DNA of 42,801 bases from a virus, in the IMG/VR virus record IMGVR_UViG_3300045988_010248, positions 1 to 42,801 of that record. One strand, 5' to 3'. Below, piece by piece: positions 521-34,417 of this stretch. The notes beneath the pieces are model-generated. The model saw only the letters and a program-made list of their open reading frames with translations, was not told the DNA's origin and searched no databases. The stretch's first letter is position 1. The number at the start of each line of letters is the position of its first letter. A program made the translations under genes and the position numbers.

Positions 521-2677
521 TTATTTATCGTTGTACTGTTGATCACCGCCAAAGGTAAGACTAGTGTACTTCTCCTGAAGCATTTCCTGTCTTTCAACTC
601 TATTGTAGATTTCATCGCCAATGCTTTCAACAAGGTTTGAAGCTTCAGCTTGATTCATTGAGAAGATAGAGTTACCCGCACGGTCAGCTACAGTAAGCAC
701 ATTACTAGAGTTGTCAAAACTCAATGTAACATTCTTATCGACATCCTCAAGGTATTTACTCGGAATCTCCTTCTTGATTCTAGCAAGAAGTTCTTTATCA
801 GGTACTGTGAGACCACTCCACCCAGTAAAAAATGAAGACGGAACTGAAGTGCCCATAAGGTTCTTAAAGGACTTATTGTACTCAGCCTCGGCCAAAGCTA
901 CAGCTTTCTCAGCAGTCTCACCCATACTTCTAAAAGCAAACGTTAAGGTAGTCACAAAAGCCTTGCCATTGTAGTCAATATCTTTAGAATCCCCTAACAT
1001 AGGATCTTGAATAGCCTTAATAGCCTTATCTCTGATCTTGGTGATTTCCTTAGTATTACCTTCATCCTTAAGCTTCTGAATCTCAGCCTTACCTCTAATG
1101 ATGTCTTCGATAGGTCTGCCTGAGTCCAACATGAGAGCCAATGCTCTAGCATCCTCTAAGTTCTTATCGGCACTAGAGCCAACAATGCTACTGAAATTAG
1201 AGGGGTCTGCTTTATACACTTCAATCAGGGTTTTTACAGAATCCTTAATTTCCTTAGGGAAAGTCTTACTGGTCATAAACTCCTTAGTGGAGTTATTGAG
1301 CCAGTTAAGTGCATCATTGGCCTGATTAGTGAAATGCTTTCTAGCAGGATTGTCCTTAAACGGAAGGTGTGGATTCTTAGCAATAGCTAACTGATCCTTG
1401 AAAGTGATTGCACCAGTATCTGCAAGGAACTGATAGGCTGTCTCGATATCCTTGTTAGTAATACCTGCGACATCTTTAGAAACTACAGGTTCACCTCGGG
1501 CAACCGACTGTACAAAAGCTCTAGACACTGAAGTCTTTAAAAGCTCATCCTGCTGTTTCTTAAGTGCTATCGCATTCTTCTTAGCATTAGCTATCTGAAC
1601 CTTTACTGCCGCATCGTAAGCCTTCTCAACGTCCTCGACTTCATCAGTAAGAAGACCACCTGACTCTTCAAACTTAGAGTTTCTAAGAGCAAGCAGTTCT
1701 GCCGCCTTACCATTGTTGGCCATAACGTTAAGGCCATTCTGGAAATCCAACTTAGCCTGAGCATCAGAAGCATACCTGAAATTAGCATTCTTAATGACAA
1801 GATTCTTATAGCCTTCTTCACCTAAGACCTGACCAAAAGTAACACCATCAAGGCCGGGGATTTCCCTATCCTTAAGGTCTCTAATAGTCTGACCTGCGTT
1901 AGGATTAGCAGAAAGAATCTCCAAGGTAGAAGACACCTTCTTAAGGGTATCCTCAGGCTTCTCGTGGGCACCTGTAGTGAGCGTCTGTTCGGCAAGCTTA
2001 CCAACAAGAAGATCTGCAGAGACATTCTTACTAGAGCTAATAGCGCTAAGTTCAGCGGCACTAGAGATCAAGTCCTGACTTCTCTGATAGGAATCCTCAA
2101 CAGTCTTCTGTCTCAGCATCATCTTAACACGCTGATTAGGAGAATCTGAGTAAATACCCTTATTGAAGAAGTAGTCATTATCAGCATAACCAAAGGCTTT
2201 AGATGCACCTGCAGATTGTTCCTTCATGTACCTGAAGAACTCTGCATCAACCTGTTCAGGGGCCATACCCTTGAACTCATTGGCATCTACACGAGCCTGA
2301 AAGTCCTGAGCAATATTACTGAAGAGAATCTTACCATGCTTCTGCTTAAGGGCGCTCATAGCAAGAGGGTCATCTTGGAATGGGACTTTACCCTCAGTCA
2401 TCTGTTGCTTGTACTCTTCAAGGGAGTGAGTCTGAAGGTACTCATCAGCAACACTTTCAGCTAATTCCTTACGTGCCTCATAGACACCCTGAATACCCTT
2501 AAAGGCCGCCTCAACAGCACCAAACCAGTCATCAGCTTCTTCAATAGTCTTCTGAGGTTTGATCGTAGGAGCAGTAGCTTTGGATTCCCCTAGCTTTGTC
2601 ATAGCAGAGTTAAAGTATCTCCACTGCCCCCACTCATTCGCAATAGATGAATTCCCGTCTGAATTTTTATAAGCCAT
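521..2677 (-). CDS. Internal virion (core) protein, T7 gp15-like by size and position
   Basis: 718-aa ORF between the gp14-like and gp16-like genes. No catalytic motif was recognised, so the call is positional. Confidence 0.7.
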   Translation of the reverse strand: MAYKNSDGNSSIANEWGQWRYFNSAMTKLGESKATAPTIKPQKTIEEADDWFGAVEAAFKGIQGVYEARKELAESVADEYLQTHSLEEYKQQMTEGKVPFQDDPLAMSALKQKHGKILFSNIAQDFQARVDANEFKGMAPEQVDAEFFRYMKEQSAGASKAFGYADNDYFFNKGIYSDSPNQRVKMMLRQKTVEDSYQRSQDLISSAAELSAISSSKNVSADLLVGKLAEQTLTTGAHEKPEDTLKKVSSTLEILSANPNAGQTIRDLKDREIPGLDGVTFGQVLGEEGYKNLVIKNANFRYASDAQAKLDFQNGLNVMANNGKAAELLALRNSKFEESGGLLTDEVEDVEKAYDAAVKVQIANAKKNAIALKKQQDELLKTSVSRAFVQSVARGEPVVSKDVAGITNKDIETAYQFLADTGAITFKDQLAIAKNPHLPFKDNPARKHFTNQANDALNWLNNSTKEFMTSKTFPKEIKDSVKTLIEVYKADPSNFSSIVGSSADKNLEDARALALMLDSGRPIEDIIRGKAEIQKLKDEGNTKEITKIRDKAIKAIQDPMLGDSKDIDYNGKAFVTTLTFAFRSMGETAEKAVALAEAEYNKSFKNLMGTSVPSSFFTGWSGLTVPDKELLARIKKEIPSKYLEDVDKNVTLSFDNSSNVLTVADRAGNSIFSMNQAEASNLVESIGDEIYNRVERQEMLQEKYTSLTFGGDQQYNDK

Positions 2678-3570
2678 TAGTAATAGTATCCTCTACGTCG
2701 TTGAGTCGCTTGTTGTACCATGTTGCCATAGTTAGCAATCTGGTTAAAGAACTTGAGTTGCTTGTCATAGGAATCCCAGTTAGCAATGACTCTATCCATG
2801 AAGCCCATCTTAGATCCCGCAGAAGTTGCCGCATTAGCAGTTGCCACACCTGTGGACGCATTAGAGGTAAGAGCGGCAACACCACCTGCACCTCCTGTAA
2901 CTTCAAGTGCAGAGACACCACCTGCGACATTAGCTCCAGTGATCGTAGGAGCGGCACTACTGATAGCATCAACACCTGCATTAGCCGCTAGCATACCACC
3001 CGTTTGACCGCCAATAGCGCCACCGACAGCACTAGCGGCACCTGCCGTAGCGGCACCCATAGCGGCACCCATAGCAACACCATTGACAAATTGACCGAAA
3101 GCCTGAGAACCATGGATGTAGGATGCACTAAGCTGATCCTTAGCTTGTTCAACTTCAGCCTTAGTAGAGATGTACAGAGCTTCCTTCTGTCCCCTGATGT
3201 TCCACACATCATTGAGATAAGCTTCCTTGTAGGAAGTCACCTGTCTAGCCGTCTGACCCCTAACAGTCTGCATGATCTTTTCTGAAGATCTACCTTCGGT
3301 GCCTGTTTCAGCTAACGCGGCTTCAAGCTGAGAGTTGTTCTGATATGAATTAAGGGACATCGTAAACAAGTCCACAAGGGCTGAGTCATATCTAGATCTC
3401 TCTTGTCTATCAAGAGCCGCTTGGTTATAGTTATAGTTCCTCTGCAGATACTCCATCTGCTTTAGGAAGGCTTTAGTCTTTTGCTTATTCTGTTTGGAGA
3501 TGCTATTAATTGATGAGCCACCACCGATGACACCACCAATAATAGCACCCGCAACAATCACGCTACTCAT
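2677..3570 (-). CDS. Internal virion protein, T7 gp14-like
   Basis: 297 aa with a hydrophobic Gly-rich N-terminus (MSSVIVAGAIIGGVIGGG) and a Gly/Ala-rich C-terminal half. It sits between the gp13-slot and gp15-like genes. Confidence 0.65.
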   Translation of the reverse strand: MSSVIVAGAIIGGVIGGGSSINSISKQNKQKTKAFLKQMEYLQRNYNYNQAALDRQERSRYDSALVDLFTMSLNSYQNNSQLEAALAETGTEGRSSEKIMQTVRGQTARQVTSYKEAYLNDVWNIRGQKEALYISTKAEVEQAKDQLSASYIHGSQAFGQFVNGVAMGAAMGAATAGAASAVGGAIGGQTGGMLAANAGVDAISSAAPTITGANVAGGVSALEVTGGAGGVAALTSNASTGVATANAATSAGSKMGFMDRVIANWDSYDKQLKFFNQIANYGNMVQQATQRRRGYYY

Positions 3571-7267: not shown

Positions 7268-8269
7268 TTAGGACTGAGCTTCCTTAACGAAGACACCAAC
7301 GGCTTCAGGACGAAGACCACCGTGACCCATAGCGTACTTGGCAATGATCTGGTCAGCCTGATACTCAGCACGGCGAGCACGTTCCATAGCAAGATCCTTC
7401 AGCTTGACCGTGCCAACAGCAGAGCGATGGAACACAATACCCTGAAGACCTGCCGTAGAGACCTGCGTGTTGAGCTCATGCTTACCGTCAACTCCTTCAT
7501 TCAGGAGGTGCGGGACTTCAATCACTTCGAAACCGCAGATCGTCTGGAGCTTGCCAGAGTTCGGATCGAAGAGAGCCTGATAGTTAGCTGAGTCGGGCAT
7601 GAGAGCCTTAATAAGAGCAGAGTAGCCTTCAGGCGTGAGCAGGCAGTAGCGGTCACCCATCGGGACATAGTTCTTCGTAAAGGCGGCACGAGCGGCAAGG
7701 AGACCTTCAATGATCTTGTTACCATAGCCAGCGGACTGCGAGAGGCTGAGACCCGTGACGAACTCGAACGGCTTACCCGTACCCTTCACCTTGTCAGCAT
7801 CAGTACCGTTGTCGGGGATGTTTTCCACCGGGGCCTTAGCGGCCATGTTAGCAAGTTCATTAATAATAGCACAGTCAGCAGACTGAGCAAGGGCTTCACC
7901 AAGCTGACGTGAGTATTCGACTCGAACGTCATAGTGGTTCATGGCATCATCAATATCAGTGATGAGGCAGTCAGCAGTAAGAAGGCCATCGATAGCGATG
8001 ACCTTTTCAGTATGCTCAAACTTCTTACGCTGATCGTCAAGGGAGTTGCCCGGTGCAAGATACTTAGCACGGGTACGACCCATGACAGCGAATGAAGCCG
8101 ATTTTCCATGGTCAATCGTTCGAACCTGATGACGAGACATCATCACGGTGTTACGGGCGAAGGCAGTCAGTACTTCACCTGAAAACACCTTCATAAAGAG
8201 AGCAGCACGAGCACCTTCAGAAAGCTTCTGACCAGGATTAGAGATGCCAGTTTCAAGAAGAGCGGCCAT
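7268..8269 (-). CDS. Major capsid protein (T7 gp10A-like)
   Basis: 333 aa. ALFMKVFSGEVLTAFARNTVMMSRHQVRTIDHGKSASFAVMGRTRAKYLAPG closely parallels T7 gp10 (LFLKVFGGEVLTAFAR...SRH...GKSAQFPVLGRT). Confidence 0.95.
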   Translation of the reverse strand: MAALLETGISNPGQKLSEGARAALFMKVFSGEVLTAFARNTVMMSRHQVRTIDHGKSASFAVMGRTRAKYLAPGNSLDDQRKKFEHTEKVIAIDGLLTADCLITDIDDAMNHYDVRVEYSRQLGEALAQSADCAIINELANMAAKAPVENIPDNGTDADKVKGTGKPFEFVTGLSLSQSAGYGNKIIEGLLAARAAFTKNYVPMGDRYCLLTPEGYSALIKALMPDSANYQALFDPNSGKLQTICGFEVIEVPHLLNEGVDGKHELNTQVSTAGLQGIVFHRSAVGTVKLKDLAMERARRAEYQADQIIAKYAMGHGGLRPEAVGVFVKEAQS

Positions 8270-17978: not shown

Positions 17979-18063
17979 TGGTAGGTCGAAGGGGATTCGA
18001 ACCCCTATGCTCTAGGCGGCACATTTTAAGTGTGCTGAGTCTCACCAATTTCTCCATCGACCC
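17979..18063 (-). tRNA. tRNA-Leu (anticodon UAA), class II, CCA encoded
   Basis: Hand-folded, 85 nt. Acceptor GGGTCGA/TCGACCT (G1.U72); anticodon arm GCACA-CTTAAAA-TGTGC; long variable arm; T arm AGGGG-TTCGAAT-CCCCT; then A-CCA. Confidence 0.9.
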
Positions 18064-18538
18064 ATTTAAATGTGCAACCTTTACATCTCTTTTTGTACCC
18101 TCTAATTACTGCTGATACAGCTCCATGAGAGCACTTCAAAAACCTAGCACATTCTCTTAAAGATCTAAACTGCTTAAACCATCCTGATTCGTGAATAGCT
18201 ACAATAGACCTTCCTCTGGTTGAAATGTTGTCCAACGTGTATAGGGAATGCTGTGCATTTTCTTTAGCAGTACACCATTCTAAATTAGACAATTGATTAT
18301 TTTGTTTGTTCCCATCAATATGATTAACTTGCGCATTTTTAAATGAAGGTTTCAAAAAAGAATTTAAAACCGCTTTGTGAACGGCGATACCCTTTCTTTT
18401 TCCATCTATCATTAAGTTAATCATAGGATACCCTCTAGGATTCAAAGAACTCTTAAGGATCTTTCCTTTCTTAGAGTAGACGTTTCCTAAATCATCTACT
18501 GAATATTCATCACTACAAAATAGTTTTACTTTCTTCAT
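18026..18538 (-). CDS. Free-standing HNH homing endonuclease
   Basis: 170 aa. It has a NUMOD4-like N-terminus, the HNH core VNHIDGNKQNNQLSNLEWCTAKENAQH, and a C-terminal helix-turn-helix-like module. AAGG RBS. The 3' end overlaps tRNA-Leu. Confidence 0.85.
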   Translation of the reverse strand: MKKVKLFCSDEYSVDDLGNVYSKKGKILKSSLNPRGYPMINLMIDGKRKGIAVHKAVLNSFLKPSFKNAQVNHIDGNKQNNQLSNLEWCTAKENAQHSLYTLDNISTRGRSIVAIHESGWFKQFRSLRECARFLKCSHGAVSAVIRGYKKRCKGCTFKWVDGEIGETQHT

Positions 18539-18573: not shown

Positions 18574-18661
18574 TGGCGGAAGTAGTAGGATTCGAACCTA
18601 CGAGCCATCTCTGACTGACGGTTTTCAAGACCGTTGCATTAAACCACTCTGCCATACTTCC
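18574..18661 (-). tRNA. tRNA-Ser (anticodon UGA), class II, CCA encoded
   Basis: Hand-folded, 88 nt. Acceptor GGAAGTA/TACTTCC; anticodon arm ACGGT-CTTGAAA-ACCGT; long variable arm; T arm GTAGG-TTCGAAT-CCTAC; discriminator G; CCA. Confidence 0.92.
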
Positions 18662-18802
18662 TGAATTCTGTGGGGGTAACCGTTGCCCCCTTTCGGATCT
18701 AATTCGGTAGACATCCTAGTCAGTAGCGACCTGACACTCTTAAGAGCCGTAGGACTTCCTCACTTCTCTTATAGTGAGAGGAGTACAATCAAACAGCGTA
18801 TT

Positions 18803-18889
18803 TGGTACGGCGTGGAGGAATCGAACCCCTTGGCTCCTTCCCGATGTTTTATGCCGATAGTTTAGAAGACTATTTCGGGGGCACGCCGT
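18803..18889 (-). ncRNA. Aberrant tRNA-like element (UCU anticodon-type hairpin, no recognisable D-arm)
   Basis: Perfect 7-bp acceptor ACGGCGT/ACGCCGT, then A-CCA. T arm (A)GGGG-TTCGATT-CCTC(C). Hairpin ATAGT-CTTCTAA-ACTAT. Only 9 nt separate the acceptor from this hairpin, and 26 nt separate the hairpin from the T arm. Confidence 0.4.
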
Positions 18890-19298
18890 GTAAGTTAATT
18901 ATTGCTTCAAGTCGCCTATTGGTGTCTCTGAGTATCTTAACACCTTCTCCGTGTAGCTCTGCACCTTCTGACAGTAGCTGTCTACATACGACGACTGACT
19001 CTGCAGTAACTCTGTCGGTATGTTGCATGATGGCTTTGTTTCCACTGTTGATGTTGTACTGCAACCTGCTAATCCGCTTATCAAGAGCAGATTGCACAGC
19101 GTCAGTGGTAGCCATGTCTTTAAGAAGTAAGTTAATCGTTGCATCTTTTCCTTTGGTTACCTCATCAATCTTTGCAATGTACTCTTTCTGTGTTGATACT
19201 AGGATCTCCCTATACTTGTTCTCTTCATAGGAAGATCCTAGGTACAAACCAACAAAGAATGCAACACCAATGATAATGGCTTTAACGTATCTAAGCAT
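18870..19298 (-). CDS. i-spanin (Rz-like) candidate
   Basis: 142 aa with an N-terminal TM (AIIIGVAFFVGLYLG), then predicted coiled-coil. It carries an embedded lipoprotein ORF in another frame and is the first gene after promoter 19305-19327. Confidence 0.6.
   Translation of the reverse strand: MLRYVKAIIIGVAFFVGLYLGSSYEENKYREILVSTQKEYIAKIDEVTKGKDATINLLLKDMATTDAVQSALDKRISRLQYNINSGNKAIMQHTDRVTAESVVVCRQLLSEGAELHGEGVKILRDTNRRLEAIINLHGVPPK
18899..19144 (-). CDS. o-spanin (Rz1-like) candidate, fully embedded in the i-spanin gene
   Basis: ATG at 19144 with AAGGA upstream. The signal peptide ends in the lipobox LAGC (MQRLTYFLKTWLPLTLCNLLLISGLAGC). The mature product is about 54 aa with two further Cys. 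Confidence 0.55.
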   Translation of the reverse strand: MQRLTYFLKTWLPLTLCNLLLISGLAGCSTTSTVETKPSCNIPTELLQSQSSYVDSYCQKVQSYTEKVLRYSETPIGDLKQ

Positions 19299-28317: not shown

Positions 28318-29033
28318 CATTATGTTTACACAAGTTCGTTACGCTTATGCCATGGGGCTACACATTGCTGTGTAGATCGGACTATATCTTAACAATAGCT
28401 AATCTTCCAACCTCTTCTACCACGAATACCTTTATAGAGGAGGTTTCTTATGTTAGCTCTAGCAAATCCTAGAGCTTCTGCACATTCTTGTATTGAGTTA
28501 AACCTAAACTGTCTGCCGTCAAGGTGTTCTGCCAAGACACCTTTAGCGTTGTGGGCTACCTTACCGTATGCGTGGTTATTTTCACCCCACTGGTTCTCAA
28601 CACCCATGCCGCCCTCTTGAAGATTATAGGTATCTTGTCTAGAGGCAAATTCTTTATCTACCAGCAAGGACTCTACTTCTCTAGCTTCTTCCCTGTTGGA
28701 TAGGACTAACAGAACCTCTCTTTTAAAGTTTTCTCTACCGTACTTCTTTATAGCAGACTTAAGCACCCAACCACTACCTAAATATCCATCGTAAATATTA
28801 TCCGTAGAGTGTAGCCCTACGTATATTTTACCATTTATTAGGTTTGTTGTTTTATAGATTATATGAAATTTGTATTCGTGCATATTATTGTTATTTTAGC
28901 TATTGTTCCCACTTTTTCAGACCACTTGGTCTTACAATTAGTCTCTACACCTTCCTATTTCTAGGCTTGGCTCGGTATTGTCCCTGAGGGAGTTTCACCG
29001 AATTTAATGGGTTTTGTTTCGGCAATATGGTTT
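28318..29033 (-). mobile_element. Group I intron 2 (td-like, IA2-type) in the terminase gene
   Basis: The 5' exon TTCGGT pairs with the internal guide GCCGAA (U.G at the splice site). The intron ends ...ACATAATG. The core blocks AAATTCGGTG, GACAATACCGAGCC and AAGATATAGTCCG are shared with intron 1. The ORF lies between the GAAAAAGTGGG and GATATAGTC elements (P8 loop). Confidence 0.8.
28389..28883 (-). CDS. Intron-encoded GIY-YIG homing endonuclease
   Basis: 164 aa. IIYKTTNLINGKIYVGLH...YLGSG...GRENFKREVL matches the GIY-YIG module. The C-terminal FNSIQECAEALGFARANIRNLL region is helix-turn-helix-like. Confidence 0.85.
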   Translation of the reverse strand: MHEYKFHIIYKTTNLINGKIYVGLHSTDNIYDGYLGSGWVLKSAIKKYGRENFKREVLLVLSNREEAREVESLLVDKEFASRQDTYNLQEGGMGVENQWGENNHAYGKVAHNAKGVLAEHLDGRQFRFNSIQECAEALGFARANIRNLLYKGIRGRRGWKISYC

Positions 29034-29825
29034 ACCGAAGTTTCCTTCAATGACTACTTCATTGACTTTGTACTTCTTAGCTACCTTAGCTAACTTATTG
29101 AGAACTACATCTGAATAACCTCCTAAAAGACCCCCTACTTCCATGACGTAGATATACCCATTTAGGTAGTACAAGACTGCATAACCCGACTCATCACGTC
29201 CACGGCCCGACGGGTCTATACATAGGATCTTATGGGCATAGGGAACAACCTCATTGGATGAGGCATGATAGTAGAAGTAAGAGTCTCCCTTAAGGCCCAT
29301 CGTAGGACACTCGTCAACTGGAACCCTCTTAGAAGGCTCAGGGAGCCACGTGAGCTTCATCGGAGCCTCGTCTAAGGGGAACATACCTACGATGAGGTCA
29401 CGAAGCCGCAGAGGGTATTTATCGGCGTCTGAGAGGGTCGTATCAAGCATGAACTGCAGAGCGAAGCCTGCCTTACGATAAGATAGTTCACGCTTCTGTA
29501 GATCATCTTCAGAGAACCTAAGGGGGTCTGTAGGTTTACCTGCCCAATGTTTAGGATCCTTGTCGTACTTGTCAGCAATGATAGGGGCCAATCTATCGCC
29601 ATAGGAGGCTCTATGAGAGTCATCATAGGGGTACCTAGCGGGATAGATTACAGCCGTGTATCCGCGCTCCTGTAGCTCGTTATAGAGACTCATTTCATTC
29701 TGAGGGGTTCCCAGATACAGGATCTTCTTACCTGCACCTGGCTTTAGGACAGCGTCGAGCTCCTTCACGAGCTCGAATAGCTGATCCCTGAGCACCTGAG
29801 TAAATGAATTAGATGGAACTTCCAC
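29034..29825 (-). CDS. Large terminase subunit, exon 2
   Basis: Begins VEVPSNSFTQ...ILYLGTPQNEMSLYNEL and ends ...VVIEGNFG. 792 nt (264 codons). It parallels the T7 gp19 central region. Confidence 0.9.
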
Positions 29826-32321: not shown

Positions 32322-34417
32322 TACATGCTCTTCCTGTCTTTGATCTCTGCCATCTTGGCGTCATTCATTCGGGTCTTTCCATTGACATTACTGTAACCCA
32401 AGTACCCACAAACACGAGAAATAATAGAGAGGTTGTGAGACCCACAATGAGGACAGGTGTTACCAACATTAGTGCTATGCCTGCCACAATCCTCGCAATA
32501 AGCCGCATCAAAGTTGACACCTTGGTAGAAACCCATCGACATGCCTCTCTGAACAAGGGCTTTAACTGCATTGACCTTATCAGGGTTATCCACTCGTACA
32601 TACTGAATGTGACCCCCATTACACTTGTGAAAAAGTTCATATTCCTTATTCTGCTTCTCAAAAGGGGTTACATCTTCACTAACGTGGAGGTGAAAGGAGT
32701 TCGTGAAGTAATCTCCGAAGCGATTGTCTCCTGTATATTCATGGTATTGTCTAGCTTGAGTCCCACACAGAGATTCTGCAGGAGTACCATAAAGAGCATA
32801 AAGGTAGCCATCTTCTTTCTTAAATTCCTCAATCTTTTCGTTAATAAAATCAACAACAGTATTAGCAAAGCAGCTAGACTCTTTCAAAGTCTTGCCAGTA
32901 GCTAGGATAGACAACTCATTCAATGCAGTGATTCCAAAGGATGCAGTCATGTATTCTACAAGATCCCCAATCTCATCATCAGGATTCAAGTAGCCATTGT
33001 AAAGACCACCCTGAGTGAAACACATGGGGTTAGTACAAGCCTTAGTGTGACGAATCATGTCGTAACGTTTCTTAAGGAACTCACGGATGACCTGCATTCT
33101 ATCCTCAAGCACAACAAAGAAGTCTTCGCCTTCATTCTCAGCAACCTTCCAAATCAACGGAAGATTAAGAGAAACAGCACCAATGTTACAACGACCGATA
33201 GTAATGGCTTCGTTTGTCTTAGGGTCATGCCACTCAGTGAGATATGCACGGCAACCCATAGGGCTCGTGATAGCACCAGTGCGCTGATAGATATCGCCCA
33301 CCTTGCCATGGTTCAAGCTAAGGTAGTCAGGGTACATACACTTACTAGAACATTCCACAGCCTTATGGAAGAGTTCCTCATGATCCTCATCAGCTTCAAT
33401 CTTATCTTCATCATAGAGGAAGACGAGCTTGGGGAAGACAACTTGCTTACCACCATGGCCCTTCATACGGGTATCGAGGATAACTTCACCGATCAGCTTC
33501 ATGATGTCTCTGTCAAGATCATCCATCATGATGTCCCAAGTACCAAAAGTAAGCGTAGTAAACGCAAAGTCACCACGAGAACACGGGACAGTATTCAACT
33601 TCAACTCAAGAGACTGGAATCCCTGCTCAAGTTCACGCTTGAGATCCCCCATAGCCATTACATAGGATTCATTATACTCCATATTGCATTGTTCGAAATA
33701 CTTCCTAAAGGCGTTATCGTAGGTCTTCTCAGCATACGGAAGGAGAACCTTGTCGATCTCTGCAATGGTAAAACCGCCGAACTGCTGTGCAGTAGCTACA
33801 AGAGTAATGTCGCCGATAACCTGAAGGGCACTAAGGACACTCGTAGGTTCAGTGTACTTCACATTAGACATCTCAAAGCCACCCTTAAGGACATTGCCAA
33901 TGTCAAAGAGACAACAATTGAATGAATTAAAGATCATGTCTCTAAGGTCGTGGATGTAGATGTCACCACGCTTAACAAGCTCCTTCTCTTTCTTAGAAAG
34001 GTAGAACTGCTTGAACAATTCCTTAGTGAGGTACCCCTTAATGAGAGAACCCTTAGTAGAGATGAGGGAGCTATCAAAGTTAGCATTCTCACGGTCTCCC
34101 AAGAGAAGCGCCGTATCAGCTTCACTCTTGACAGACTCAAAGGCTTTAGCATAGGTGTTCTTGTAATCTCGATATTCCTGATAAGCCTTGCCTACTTCAG
34201 GGAGATATCTGTTAAGAGCATCAATAACGTGGTCATGAAGAGCCTCAGTAGTGACTTCAGTCTTGTGATAAAGGATGCCCTCGATGTAACCTTCGATCTG
34301 CCAAAGCTTCCATTCAGGATACTTAGCATTAGCTCTCTTAGTAGCCTTATCAATAGCTACCTTGATCTTATCAAAGCACCAGTCTTCACGAGTGCCGTCT
34401 TTCTTAATAACGTTCAT
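32321..34417 (-). CDS. nrdD: Anaerobic ribonucleoside-triphosphate reductase (class III)
   Basis: 698 aa. It has a C-terminal Zn site CEDCG...CPHCG, followed by the glycyl-radical motif SRVCGYLGY. Confidence 0.95.
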   Translation of the reverse strand: MNVIKKDGTREDWCFDKIKVAIDKATKRANAKYPEWKLWQIEGYIEGILYHKTEVTTEALHDHVIDALNRYLPEVGKAYQEYRDYKNTYAKAFESVKSEADTALLLGDRENANFDSSLISTKGSLIKGYLTKELFKQFYLSKKEKELVKRGDIYIHDLRDMIFNSFNCCLFDIGNVLKGGFEMSNVKYTEPTSVLSALQVIGDITLVATAQQFGGFTIAEIDKVLLPYAEKTYDNAFRKYFEQCNMEYNESYVMAMGDLKRELEQGFQSLELKLNTVPCSRGDFAFTTLTFGTWDIMMDDLDRDIMKLIGEVILDTRMKGHGGKQVVFPKLVFLYDEDKIEADEDHEELFHKAVECSSKCMYPDYLSLNHGKVGDIYQRTGAITSPMGCRAYLTEWHDPKTNEAITIGRCNIGAVSLNLPLIWKVAENEGEDFFVVLEDRMQVIREFLKKRYDMIRHTKACTNPMCFTQGGLYNGYLNPDDEIGDLVEYMTASFGITALNELSILATGKTLKESSCFANTVVDFINEKIEEFKKEDGYLYALYGTPAESLCGTQARQYHEYTGDNRFGDYFTNSFHLHVSEDVTPFEKQNKEYELFHKCNGGHIQYVRVDNPDKVNAVKALVQRGMSMGFYQGVNFDAAYCEDCGRHSTNVGNTCPHCGSHNLSIISRVCGYLGYSNVNGKTRMNDAKMAEIKDRKSM

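Follow-up and report, generated by a model that had tools for sequence, protein, structure and literature searches.

Known bacterial transfer RNAs (tRNAs) all fold into cloverleaves, and natural arm-less tRNAs are described only from mitochondria (PMC11551756, 2024), while a synthetic tRNA without a D arm is accepted by E. coli histidyl-tRNA synthetase, EF-Tu and the ribosome (PMC11551756). In a further group, the allo-tRNAs, a 12-bp acceptor branch is divided into an acceptor stem of 8 bp and a T stem of 4 bp (8/4) or into 9 and 3 bp (9/3), and tRNAs of the 8/4 type function in E. coli translation (PMC5389517). Here we analyze a 42,801-nt stretch of viral DNA (IMG/VR virus record IMGVR_UViG_3300045988_010248, positions 1 to 42,801, called the window below) that carries on its minus strand, at 18803-18889, an element of 87 nt including an encoded CCA (ACGGCGTGCCCCCGAAATAGTCTTCTAAACTATCGGCATAAAACATCGGGAAGGAGCCAAGGGGTTCGATTCCTCCACGCCGTACCA). 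Judging from sequence comparisons, we consider it probable, at roughly three chances in four, that this element is a functional but topologically rewired tRNA-Arg(UCU) that reads AGA codons. It has no D hairpin, and its core appears to be built from a pseudoknot with the variable arm.

Read from 18889 to 18803, the element is laid out as ACGGCGTG-CC-CCCGA-AATAGT-CTTCTAA-ACTATC-GGC-ATAAAACA-TCGGG-AAGGA-GCC-AA-GGGG-TTCGATT-CCTC-CACGCCGT-A-CCA, with all parts on the minus strand. The 5' acceptor strand ACGGCGTG (8 nt, 18882-18889), which lies within the final codons of an open reading frame (ORF) at 18870-19298, pairs with the 3' acceptor strand CACGCCGT (18807-18814), and this is followed by the discriminator base A84 and the CCA (18803-18806). 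A 2-nt CC connector (18880-18881) leads from the acceptor stem to CCCGA (18875-18879), the 5' strand of a helix that we term S1; this strand abuts the anticodon stem, where it would replace a D-stem strand, and pairs with TCGGG (18840-18844) inside the variable-arm loop. The anticodon arm (18856-18874) carries an A/C mismatch at its outermost position, where most relatives have A-U, and its loop contains U33, A37 and the anticodon TCT (18864-18866), which reads AGA (Arg). Immediately 3' of the anticodon stem is GGC (18853-18855), the 5' strand of the variable-arm stem, or helix S2, whose 3' strand is GCC (18832-18834). Between these two strands are an A-rich linker, ATAAAACA (18845-18852), the 3' strand of S1 and a conserved AAGGA motif (18835-18839) that we propose as a counterpart of D-loop A14..G18 G19 A20. 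Finally, the T arm (18815-18829) is composed of the loop TTCGATT on a 4-bp stem, GGGG/CCTC, with one G-U pair.

Several features of a canonical tRNA are present, specifically a closed acceptor stem, a discriminator, CCA, a T loop of the GTTCRANY type and a 7-nt anticodon loop with U33 and a purine at position 37. What is absent is a D hairpin: the gap between acceptor and anticodon stems is 7 nt (CC plus CCCGA), and the S1 strand within it pairs with the variable region instead of locally. From the anticodon stem, taken as 6 bp, to the 4-bp T stem there are 26 nt; the variable stem takes up only 2-3 bp of this region, and S1 engages five of the 18 nt in the loop of that stem. A first-pass annotation of this locus had described the ACGGCGT/ACGCCGT acceptor pairing, the discriminator A and encoded CCA, a 5-bp hairpin (ATAGT/ACTAT) with loop CTTCTAA, and spacings of 9 nt before and 26 nt after that hairpin, all of which are found in the sequence. 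It had also called a 7-bp acceptor stem and a T arm with a canonical TTCGATT loop, and these stand with two refinements: an eighth pair, G8-C76, extends the acceptor stem to 8 bp, and an A/C mismatch at the would-be fifth position limits the T stem to 4 bp. Similarly, the CCCG/CGGG helix that it offered as a possible extension is real, with an actual size of 5 bp (CCCGA, 18875-18879, with TCGGG, 18840-18844), and it is crossed by GGC/GCC.

The nearest described tRNAs are the 8/4 allo-tRNAs, along with the 8/4 tRNA-Ser and tRNA-His of bacteria and phages (Mukai et al. 2017, PMC5389517), which share with the element the 12-bp 8/4 domain, a 6-bp anticodon stem, a long variable region, occurrence in phages and a weak similarity to selenocysteine tRNA (tRNA-Sec). 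However, allo-tRNAs keep a tRNA-Sec-like D stem-loop, with a long stem and a tetraloop, as well as a free variable-arm hairpin, and the element has neither. Their anticodons also match 35 codons (PMC5389517), whereas those of the family described below are nearly limited to Arg, plus Tyr. The mitochondrial D-armless tRNA-Ser(AGY) and the synthetic 'mini HisT' (PMC11551756) resemble the element in having no D hairpin between acceptor and anticodon stems. In contrast to it, they offer no substitute for the D stem, their variable loop is short and they fold into a Y that lacks the D/T elbow, while the family keeps a D-stem-like helix, a GG motif that possibly rebuilds the elbow, a base-paired connector and the 26-nt region. 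The best Rfam match of the element is tRNA-Sec (RF01852), with which it shares an extended acceptor, a 6-bp anticodon stem and a long variable region, but it falls below the gathering score, its anticodon is UCU and not UCA, and its acceptor/T domain is 12 bp and not 13 bp.

Standard gene finders do not detect the element. ARAGORN in standard, relaxed (lowered-threshold), mitochondrial (D-replacement) and intron modes left it uncalled and found no standard cloverleaf. On the window ARAGORN calls only tRNA-Ser(tga) at 18574-18661 and tRNA-Leu(taa) at 17979-18063, and Rfam at gathering thresholds recovers these two tRNAs plus a group I intron, with no match on the element by any Rfam family including RF00005. 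At a permissive E-value the sole Rfam match on the element is the tRNA-Sec model, at 25.8 bits versus a gathering score of 47, in an alignment that hints at a lengthened acceptor stem and a T stem of 4 bp, with only 5 nt opposite the model's 16-nt D-arm segment. We found no family in Rfam 15 that matches the rewired architecture, and ARAGORN calls only 1 of 62 members of the family to which the element belongs. None of the GenBank phage rows inspected for family matches is labelled as a tRNA, which is weak evidence because some of these records (Av-05, KARL-1) annotate zero tRNAs.

This family is large and is spread over unrelated phages. A scan of viral contigs for TCTTCTAAA-N(29-41)-GGTTCGATTCC, filtered for an acceptor complement, returned about 60 highly divergent sequences with the same layout from many environments. 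A covariance model, R1, built from 27 family sequences with helix S1 omitted, scores members at 28-104 bits and canonical tRNAs at no more than 27 bits, which sets the two apart; the element scores 96.9 bits, being itself part of the training set. A second scan, in which GGAWGGA and the T arm were fixed and the anticodon was free, added at least 32 distinct members, and at least 106 distinct sequences with this architecture are present in unrelated viral contigs. CCA is encoded in 81 of 106 distinct sequences, the connector between the acceptor stem and S1 is 2 nt in 56 of 67 and 3 nt in the other 11, and 239 of the 413 bases in the linker columns are A. BLAST searches with three members as queries gave 55, 337 and 26 cultured-phage records, in overlapping sets, with carriers that include Acinetobacter T4-like phages (KARL-1), Vibrio phages (~300 records), phages of Aeromonas (AhSzw-1), E. 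coli (Av-05), Salmonella (Arash) and Pseudomonas (Rembedalsseter), and Nitrincola and Salicola phages. R1 scores in cultured phages are 97.4 bits for Arash, 96.2 for Av-05, 95.2 for Vibrio D419 and 89.3 for KARL-1. In three of these the member spans 33435-33520 of OQ632216 (Arash), 7394-7477 of NC_025830 (Av-05) and 109460-109544 of NC_049441 (KARL-1). When one representative genome per prokaryotic species was scanned, and the first 100 pattern-match loci (all but the last 20) were run through R1, eight were members, all of them on metagenome-assembled or draft contigs, and about 90 were chance matches; within the limits of this sample, the family seems to be carried mostly by phages. The T4 RNAs rnaC and rnaD (species 1 and 2), small non-tRNA RNAs that also lie beside a phage tRNA-Arg gene, were considered as relatives and rejected, as R1 gives 16.9 bits or less on the T4 cluster, which is in the range of ordinary tRNAs, compared with 28-104 bits for members.

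Covariation across the family indicates that the proposed helices are maintained. In a model-derived alignment of 67 distinct rows (A3), in which five helices were counted, 92.9% of cells are paired versus 66.2% in shuffles, and double-sided changes occur in 26 of 27 pairs. The covariation score is 0.695, compared with 0.178 in shuffles, none of 500 of which reach 0.695, and with 0.07-0.11 for slid partners. Individually, the 8-bp acceptor stem is paired in 97.4% of cells with double-sided changes at all eight pairs, the 6-bp anticodon stem is 96% paired and covarying, the 4-bp T stem is 98.9% paired, and the 3-bp S2 is 82% paired. S1 has five core pairs, plus a sixth in one subfamily, with the core at least 92% paired and double-sided changes at all five. 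Because S1 is absent from the model that produced the alignment, its covariation owes nothing to the way the alignment was made; S1 is also found de novo by RNAalifold. S2 was part of the model and was therefore tested alignment-free, at fixed offsets from the anticodon and T loops, where it is fully complementary in 50 of 104 sequences; shifted registers mostly give 1-9%, with 20-30% in two registers that fit members with longer spacers. Eleven pair combinations are seen in S2, for example AGC/GCT, GGC/GCC, GAC/GTC, ACG/CGT and CAC/GTG. At the eighth acceptor pair 54 of 67 sequences have G-C and one other (L065) has T-A, and this conservation indicates that the acceptor/T domain is of the 8/4 type. 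The GGA of the conserved motif is present in 58 of 67 distinct sequences of a set that was unselected for the motif.

Since the strands are ordered S1-5', S2-5', S1-3', S2-3', the two helices form a pseudoknot. The 5' strand of S1 would take the role of D-stem strand 22-25 plus position 26, and the AWGGA that follows the 3' strand of S1 would parallel the A14...G18 G19 A20 that follows D-stem strand 10-13 in a normal tRNA, so that the 5' half of the D arm has in effect probably been relocated to the variable loop. S1 (5 bp) and the anticodon stem (6 bp) give 11 stacked layers, a number near that which a normal tRNA reaches with D stem, position 26 and anticodon stem together, and the 8+4 stack amounts to the usual 12 bp, making an L-shape with a GG/T-loop elbow plausible. 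The first-pass annotation had suggested a D-armless tRNA-Arg, which of its three options comes nearest. The tRNA-Arg part of that suggestion is supported by the Arg anticodon, by a nearly all-Arg family and by the allelic relation to a canonical tRNA-Arg(UCU) described next, while 'D-armless' does not cover the whole structure, given that a D-stem-like helix persists in S1, that the GGA motif is present and that the acceptor/T arrangement is 8/4 and not 7/5.

We also compared the element with its close relatives, comprising about 33 related contigs obtained from IMG/VR by exact-pattern scans and a spanin-based search (a megablast of the 1.5-kb neighbourhood versus cultured phages had just two matches, both to unannotated faecal contigs). 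The full element is present, in five sequence variants, in about half of the closest relatives. The first-pass annotation had named acceptor covariation in related phages as a check, and double compensatory changes are indeed observed. Specifically, the acceptor is either of the window type, ACGGCGT/ACGCCGT, or ACAACGT/ACGTTGT, which amounts to two double compensatory changes, with the relatives' strands being ACAACGTG/CACGTTGT and ACGGTGTG/CACGCCGT. These two double changes turn an overlapping codon from Gly to Asn, indicating that RNA constraint dominates over protein constraint. One variant has C5 changed to T in the acceptor stem, giving a U-G pair, the G-U pair of the T stem is A-U in L003-type relatives, and S1 is CCCAC/GTGGG in most relatives.

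The contigs that lack the full element are equally informative. All 16 of them have a canonical tRNA-Arg(tct), although in one (L001) only its 5' start is visible before the contig ends, while none of the 17 contigs with the full element has one, so there is no exception to the exclusion among these 17 versus 16 contigs. In the four contigs where the sequence was inspected (L024, L027, L032 and L036), the canonical tRNA-Arg(UCU) is located between the same flanks. Thus the element and tRNA-Arg(UCU) exclude each other at a single site and act as alleles of one function. Compared with the canonical gene (as in L012, L024 and L036), the element has the same genomic slot, the loop CUUCUAA with C35, U36 and A37, the T-loop consensus, CCA and, presumably, the same role in decoding phage AGA codons. 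It differs in having no D hairpin or U8, in being 8/4 and not 7/5, in having a long variable loop that gives a D-stem-like strand, and in being missed by ARAGORN and the Rfam tRNA model.

In four of these relatives, which we call B-type (L001, L008, L012 and L016), only the 5' two-thirds of the element is kept, up to GGGGTT, and is fused at GGTT to the start of an ORF of 85 aa, after which come a canonical tRNA-Arg(UCU) and the common downstream flank AATACGC...; in further relatives the canonical tRNA-Arg(UCU) directly occupies the element's slot. The truncated copies are the derived state. Among the sequences compared, a G-to-T change in the GGA motif (L016) and a G8-to-T change that breaks the eighth acceptor pair (L001) are found only in truncated copies. 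The relative MT836968.1 had suggested a deletion junction, in which an intergenic hairpin and a ribosome-binding site would have become joined to a tRNA 3' end; this idea is ruled out by the full copies with compensatory changes and by the wider family.

The interval between the spanin ORF and the tRNAs is a mosaic hot spot, as seen at 3528-3850 of L001, downstream of the truncated element in L012 and L008, and in L024 and L027. It can hold an optional ORF of ~107 aa flanked by the repeat ATTAACTTACAC, and an optional cassette of the 85-aa ORF, which has no Pfam or PHROG match, plus the canonical tRNA-Arg, which substitutes the 3' third of the element. In L031 (3420-3700) ~250 nt of unrelated sequence separate the start of a canonical tRNA-Arg (CTCTCCTTA) from tRNA-Ser, which may represent an interrupted or intron-containing gene.

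The anticodons of the family vary, but nearly always within the Arg set. Among the 106 sequences they are UCU in 95 (many from the scan that fixed UCU), CCU in four, UCG in two, ACG in one and GUA (Tyr) in three, with one unclear loop. The anticodon-free scan gave 27 UCU and four CCU among the matches listed, and one GUA member comes from a locus of that scan where it was detected by the covariance model and not by the pattern. C35 is invariant in the Arg-type members. Bacterial Arg identity is A20 plus C35 plus U/G36, with A20 as the main determinant for E. coli arginyl-tRNA synthetase (ArgRS) (PMC9976931), and with its UCU anticodon the element carries the C35 and U/G36 of this set. Across 123 viral-contig loci with members, which together hold ~500 canonical tRNAs, a canonical Arg(tct) is present in two loci only, and the member there is of the CCU type. 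The three Tyr-type members, which lack AWGGA at the Arg-type position, share the rewired architecture, and the fold is therefore not strictly Arg-specific.

Several observations on individual members accompany these counts. The GUA members are located at 1957-2047 (+) of L129, 3908-3997 (+) of L137 and 2978-3067 (-) of L258, and have the loop CTGTAAA and discriminator A. Adjacent or neighbouring pairs of members occur in L088 (3491-3577 and 3645-3732, -), L167 (1449-1536 and 1543-1627, +), L108 (6418-6504 and 6506-6592, -), L082 (5794-5876 and 5879-5961, +) and L112 (7005-7095 and 7150-7236, -). The paired members differ in their Arg anticodon, with UCU accompanied by CCU, ACG or UCG, which suggests that these pairs arose by duplication and an anticodon shift within the fold. 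The carrier Av-05 has an annotated tRNA nucleotidyltransferase, the CCA-adding enzyme (L322, 37094-38338, -). The same phage (NC_025830; L200, 2203-2296, +) also has a ~94-nt tRNA-like sequence with a D arm, the loop TTTATAA (UAU, perhaps Ile) and a long variable region; it is uncalled by ARAGORN, scores only 14.5 bits with R1 and may be another unannotated non-canonical (allo-tRNA-like) tRNA.

Together these results lead us to the following model for the element as a decoding tRNA. The 12-bp acceptor/T coaxial domain would be kept in 8/4 form with the discriminator base and CCA, along with a standard anticodon arm. CCCGA on the 5' side of the anticodon stem would pair with TCGGG in the variable loop to give a D-stem-like S1 able to stack on the anticodon stem, and the variable-arm stem S2 (GGC/GCC) would cross it, forming a pseudoknotted core. 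The GG of AWGGA would dock on the T loop and preserve the L-shape, and ArgRS would recognise the RNA chiefly by the final A of AWGGA together with C35. Release from the late transcript would take RNase P and trimming at the 3' end, after which host ArgRS would charge the RNA, and the charged RNA would read AGA for a T7-like gut phage that uses this codon more than any other for Arg. We infer expression, processing, three-dimensional fold, arginylation and ribosome use of the element from comparative evidence.

A number of points weigh against this interpretation. The single-sequence minimum free energy fold of the window copy (-28.7 kcal/mol, z = -2.49) prefers another local helix, CCCG/CGG, beside the hairpin and disrupts the T arm; this local helix is only 51.7% paired in the family, and S1 was preferred over it. 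The equivalence of GGA with G18 G19 A20 would be one of positional analogy. Because position 8 is paired, U8 and hence the U8-A14 tertiary pair are missing. The discriminator varies among the 106 sequences (T in 38, A in 34, G in 31 and C in three), whereas A/G73 is usual in bacterial tRNA-Arg; U73 is also listed for bacterial tRNA-Arg (PMC9976931, Table 1). Cleavage by RNase P at the 5' end, which falls within an ORF, would strip the stop codon from that copy of the mRNA. Furthermore, most members come from patterns that fix the UCU loop or GGAWGGA, so the anticodon spectrum is known only in part.

Of the alternatives, the one that survives best is that the element is a tRNA mimic acting outside decoding, either by titrating, as a decoy or sponge, some host factor aimed at tRNA-Arg, such as an anticodon nuclease or other tRNA-directed defence, or as a regulator that binds ArgRS or the ribosome. 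Phage tRNAs can counter tRNA-cleaving defences, and the unusual core, the variable discriminator base and anticodons limited to Arg, rarely Tyr, would suit imitation of particular targeted tRNAs. However, the decoding features are all kept (12-bp acceptor/T domain, CCA, U33, A37 and GGA), and in sister genomes the element exactly replaces the canonical tRNA-Arg(UCU) at the same site and never coexists with it. The phage also uses AGA heavily: it is the commonest Arg codon in the window, at 37.6% of Arg codons and 15.7 per 1000, with AGG at 17.7%. Given the exact replacement and the heavy AGA use, a mimic is less economical than a decoding tRNA, and we regard it as unlikely.

A second alternative is that the element is a tRNA-like processing or stability signal, a substrate of RNase P or a CCA-adding enzyme, that separates the lysis mRNA from the downstream tRNAs with no adaptor role, as the first-pass annotation had proposed among its options. 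An acceptor/T minihelix alone is an RNase P substrate, and the element does lie at the end of the lysis cassette, overlapping the last six codons of the putative i-spanin ORF (18870-19298, -) together with its stop (..H G V P P K *), an overlap that had been noted correctly before. But the 7-nt Arg anticodon loop, the S1/S2 core and GGA would all be superfluous for such a signal and yet are conserved or covarying, the anticodons are nearly all Arg, and relatives exchange the element for a real tRNA-Arg and never carry both. In other phages, moreover, the setting is another one: in Arash and Vibrio D419 it exactly occupies an otherwise empty intergenic gap, and in Av-05, whose first 50 kb have 14 canonical tRNAs and none for Arg, it is inside the tRNA cluster between tRNA-Thr and tRNA-Cys. 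A role in processing alone is thus very unlikely.

The element could instead be a functional UCU tRNA that carries some amino acid in place of Arg and recodes AGA, for example Ser by way of the long variable arm. Its 8/4 arrangement and long variable region do resemble allo-tRNAs, through which Ser or other amino acids are incorporated at non-cognate codons in E. coli (PMC5389517). This is nevertheless highly improbable because closely related phages use either allele, with sister phages whose spanins are 92-100% identical to that of the window over the aligned part employing an ordinary tRNA-Arg(UCU) instead. In addition, AGA is the commonest Arg codon and Pfam domains in the window are recovered normally with the standard code, the variable-arm stem is only 3 bp with its loop sequestered in S1, and all four non-Tyr anticodons are Arg anticodons. 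Lastly, a decaying tRNA gene (another option of the first-pass annotation) or a recombination scar whose acceptor-like complement arose by chance, for which the recombination within the element in the B-type relatives might speak, is refuted by the compensatory changes in close relatives, by the at least 106 distinct sequences from unrelated phages, which share one architecture and covary at 26 of 27 pairs, by the confinement of GGA-breaking and eighth-pair-breaking changes to truncated copies among the sequences compared, and by the swap with canonical tRNA-Arg.

Returning to the element as a rewired tRNA-Arg(UCU), a family of phage tRNAs without a D hairpin, whose core is formed by a pseudoknot with the variable arm, is apparently undescribed; our literature search found no description of this architecture, and an earlier report outside the searched literature is possible. 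If correct, the family constitutes a widespread natural exception in bacterial translation systems, in which an adaptor core with another strand topology seemingly does ordinary tRNA-Arg work. Since the family is missing from Rfam, uncalled by ARAGORN and unlabelled in the inspected GenBank rows, phage tRNA counts and codon-usage analyses are probably biased, especially for AGA/AGG. The fold would also be a natural test of the tRNA features needed by ArgRS, RNase P, EF-Tu, modification enzymes and the ribosome, as well as a natural scaffold for tRNA engineering, and the presence of carriers among cultured phages of E. coli, Salmonella, Acinetobacter and Vibrio makes the claim directly testable. 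More tentatively, and with the odds well against it, the L-shape of tRNA may have been reached in nature a second time by this fold, which phages would keep because it escapes recognisers of the canonical D arm or elbow, such as a tRNA-targeting defence nuclease of the host or a competitor or a degradation pathway, yet is accepted by ArgRS (tyrosyl-tRNA synthetase for GUA members), EF-Tu and the ribosome. Should that be so, phages would hold a hidden, defence-resistant set of tRNAs that is invisible to current gene finders.

The window derives from a T7-like podophage, with a single-subunit RNA polymerase, T7-type primase-helicase, DNA polymerase A, nozzle, connector, tail fibre and endonuclease I; it additionally encodes NrdD and ThyX. 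In a non-overlapping set of ORFs, each with 80 codons or more, all 36 are on the minus strand, and the GC content is 44.3%. The i-spanin label of the ORF that overlaps the 5' part of the element, which is context outside the RNA, has a weak basis, namely a PHROG match to Rz-like spanin (E=7e-4), an embedded lipobox ORF and a position downstream of an Amidase_2 endolysin. In relatives the spanin ORF stops earlier (..NLHK*) or another ORF precedes the element.

Between the element and tRNA-Ser is a conserved non-coding stretch of ~135 nt (18662-18802, -) that is kept with either tRNA-Arg allele and has no Rfam match. RNAalifold predicts four hairpins in it, the second of which exists in two unrelated versions, GUCAGGUCGCUACUGAC and GUCGGGUAGCUCCCGAC, that both fold, and the stretch may be a further small RNA or processing site. 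Further downstream, an HNH / I-HmuI-NUMOD homing-endonuclease ORF (18026-18538, -) lies between tRNA-Ser and tRNA-Leu with its 3' end overlapping tRNA-Leu (17979-18063), while in L008 and L012 the two tRNAs are adjacent without this ORF. The group I catalytic intron (RF00028) detected by Rfam is located at 28358-29043 (-) and scores 52.1 bits versus a gathering score of 50.

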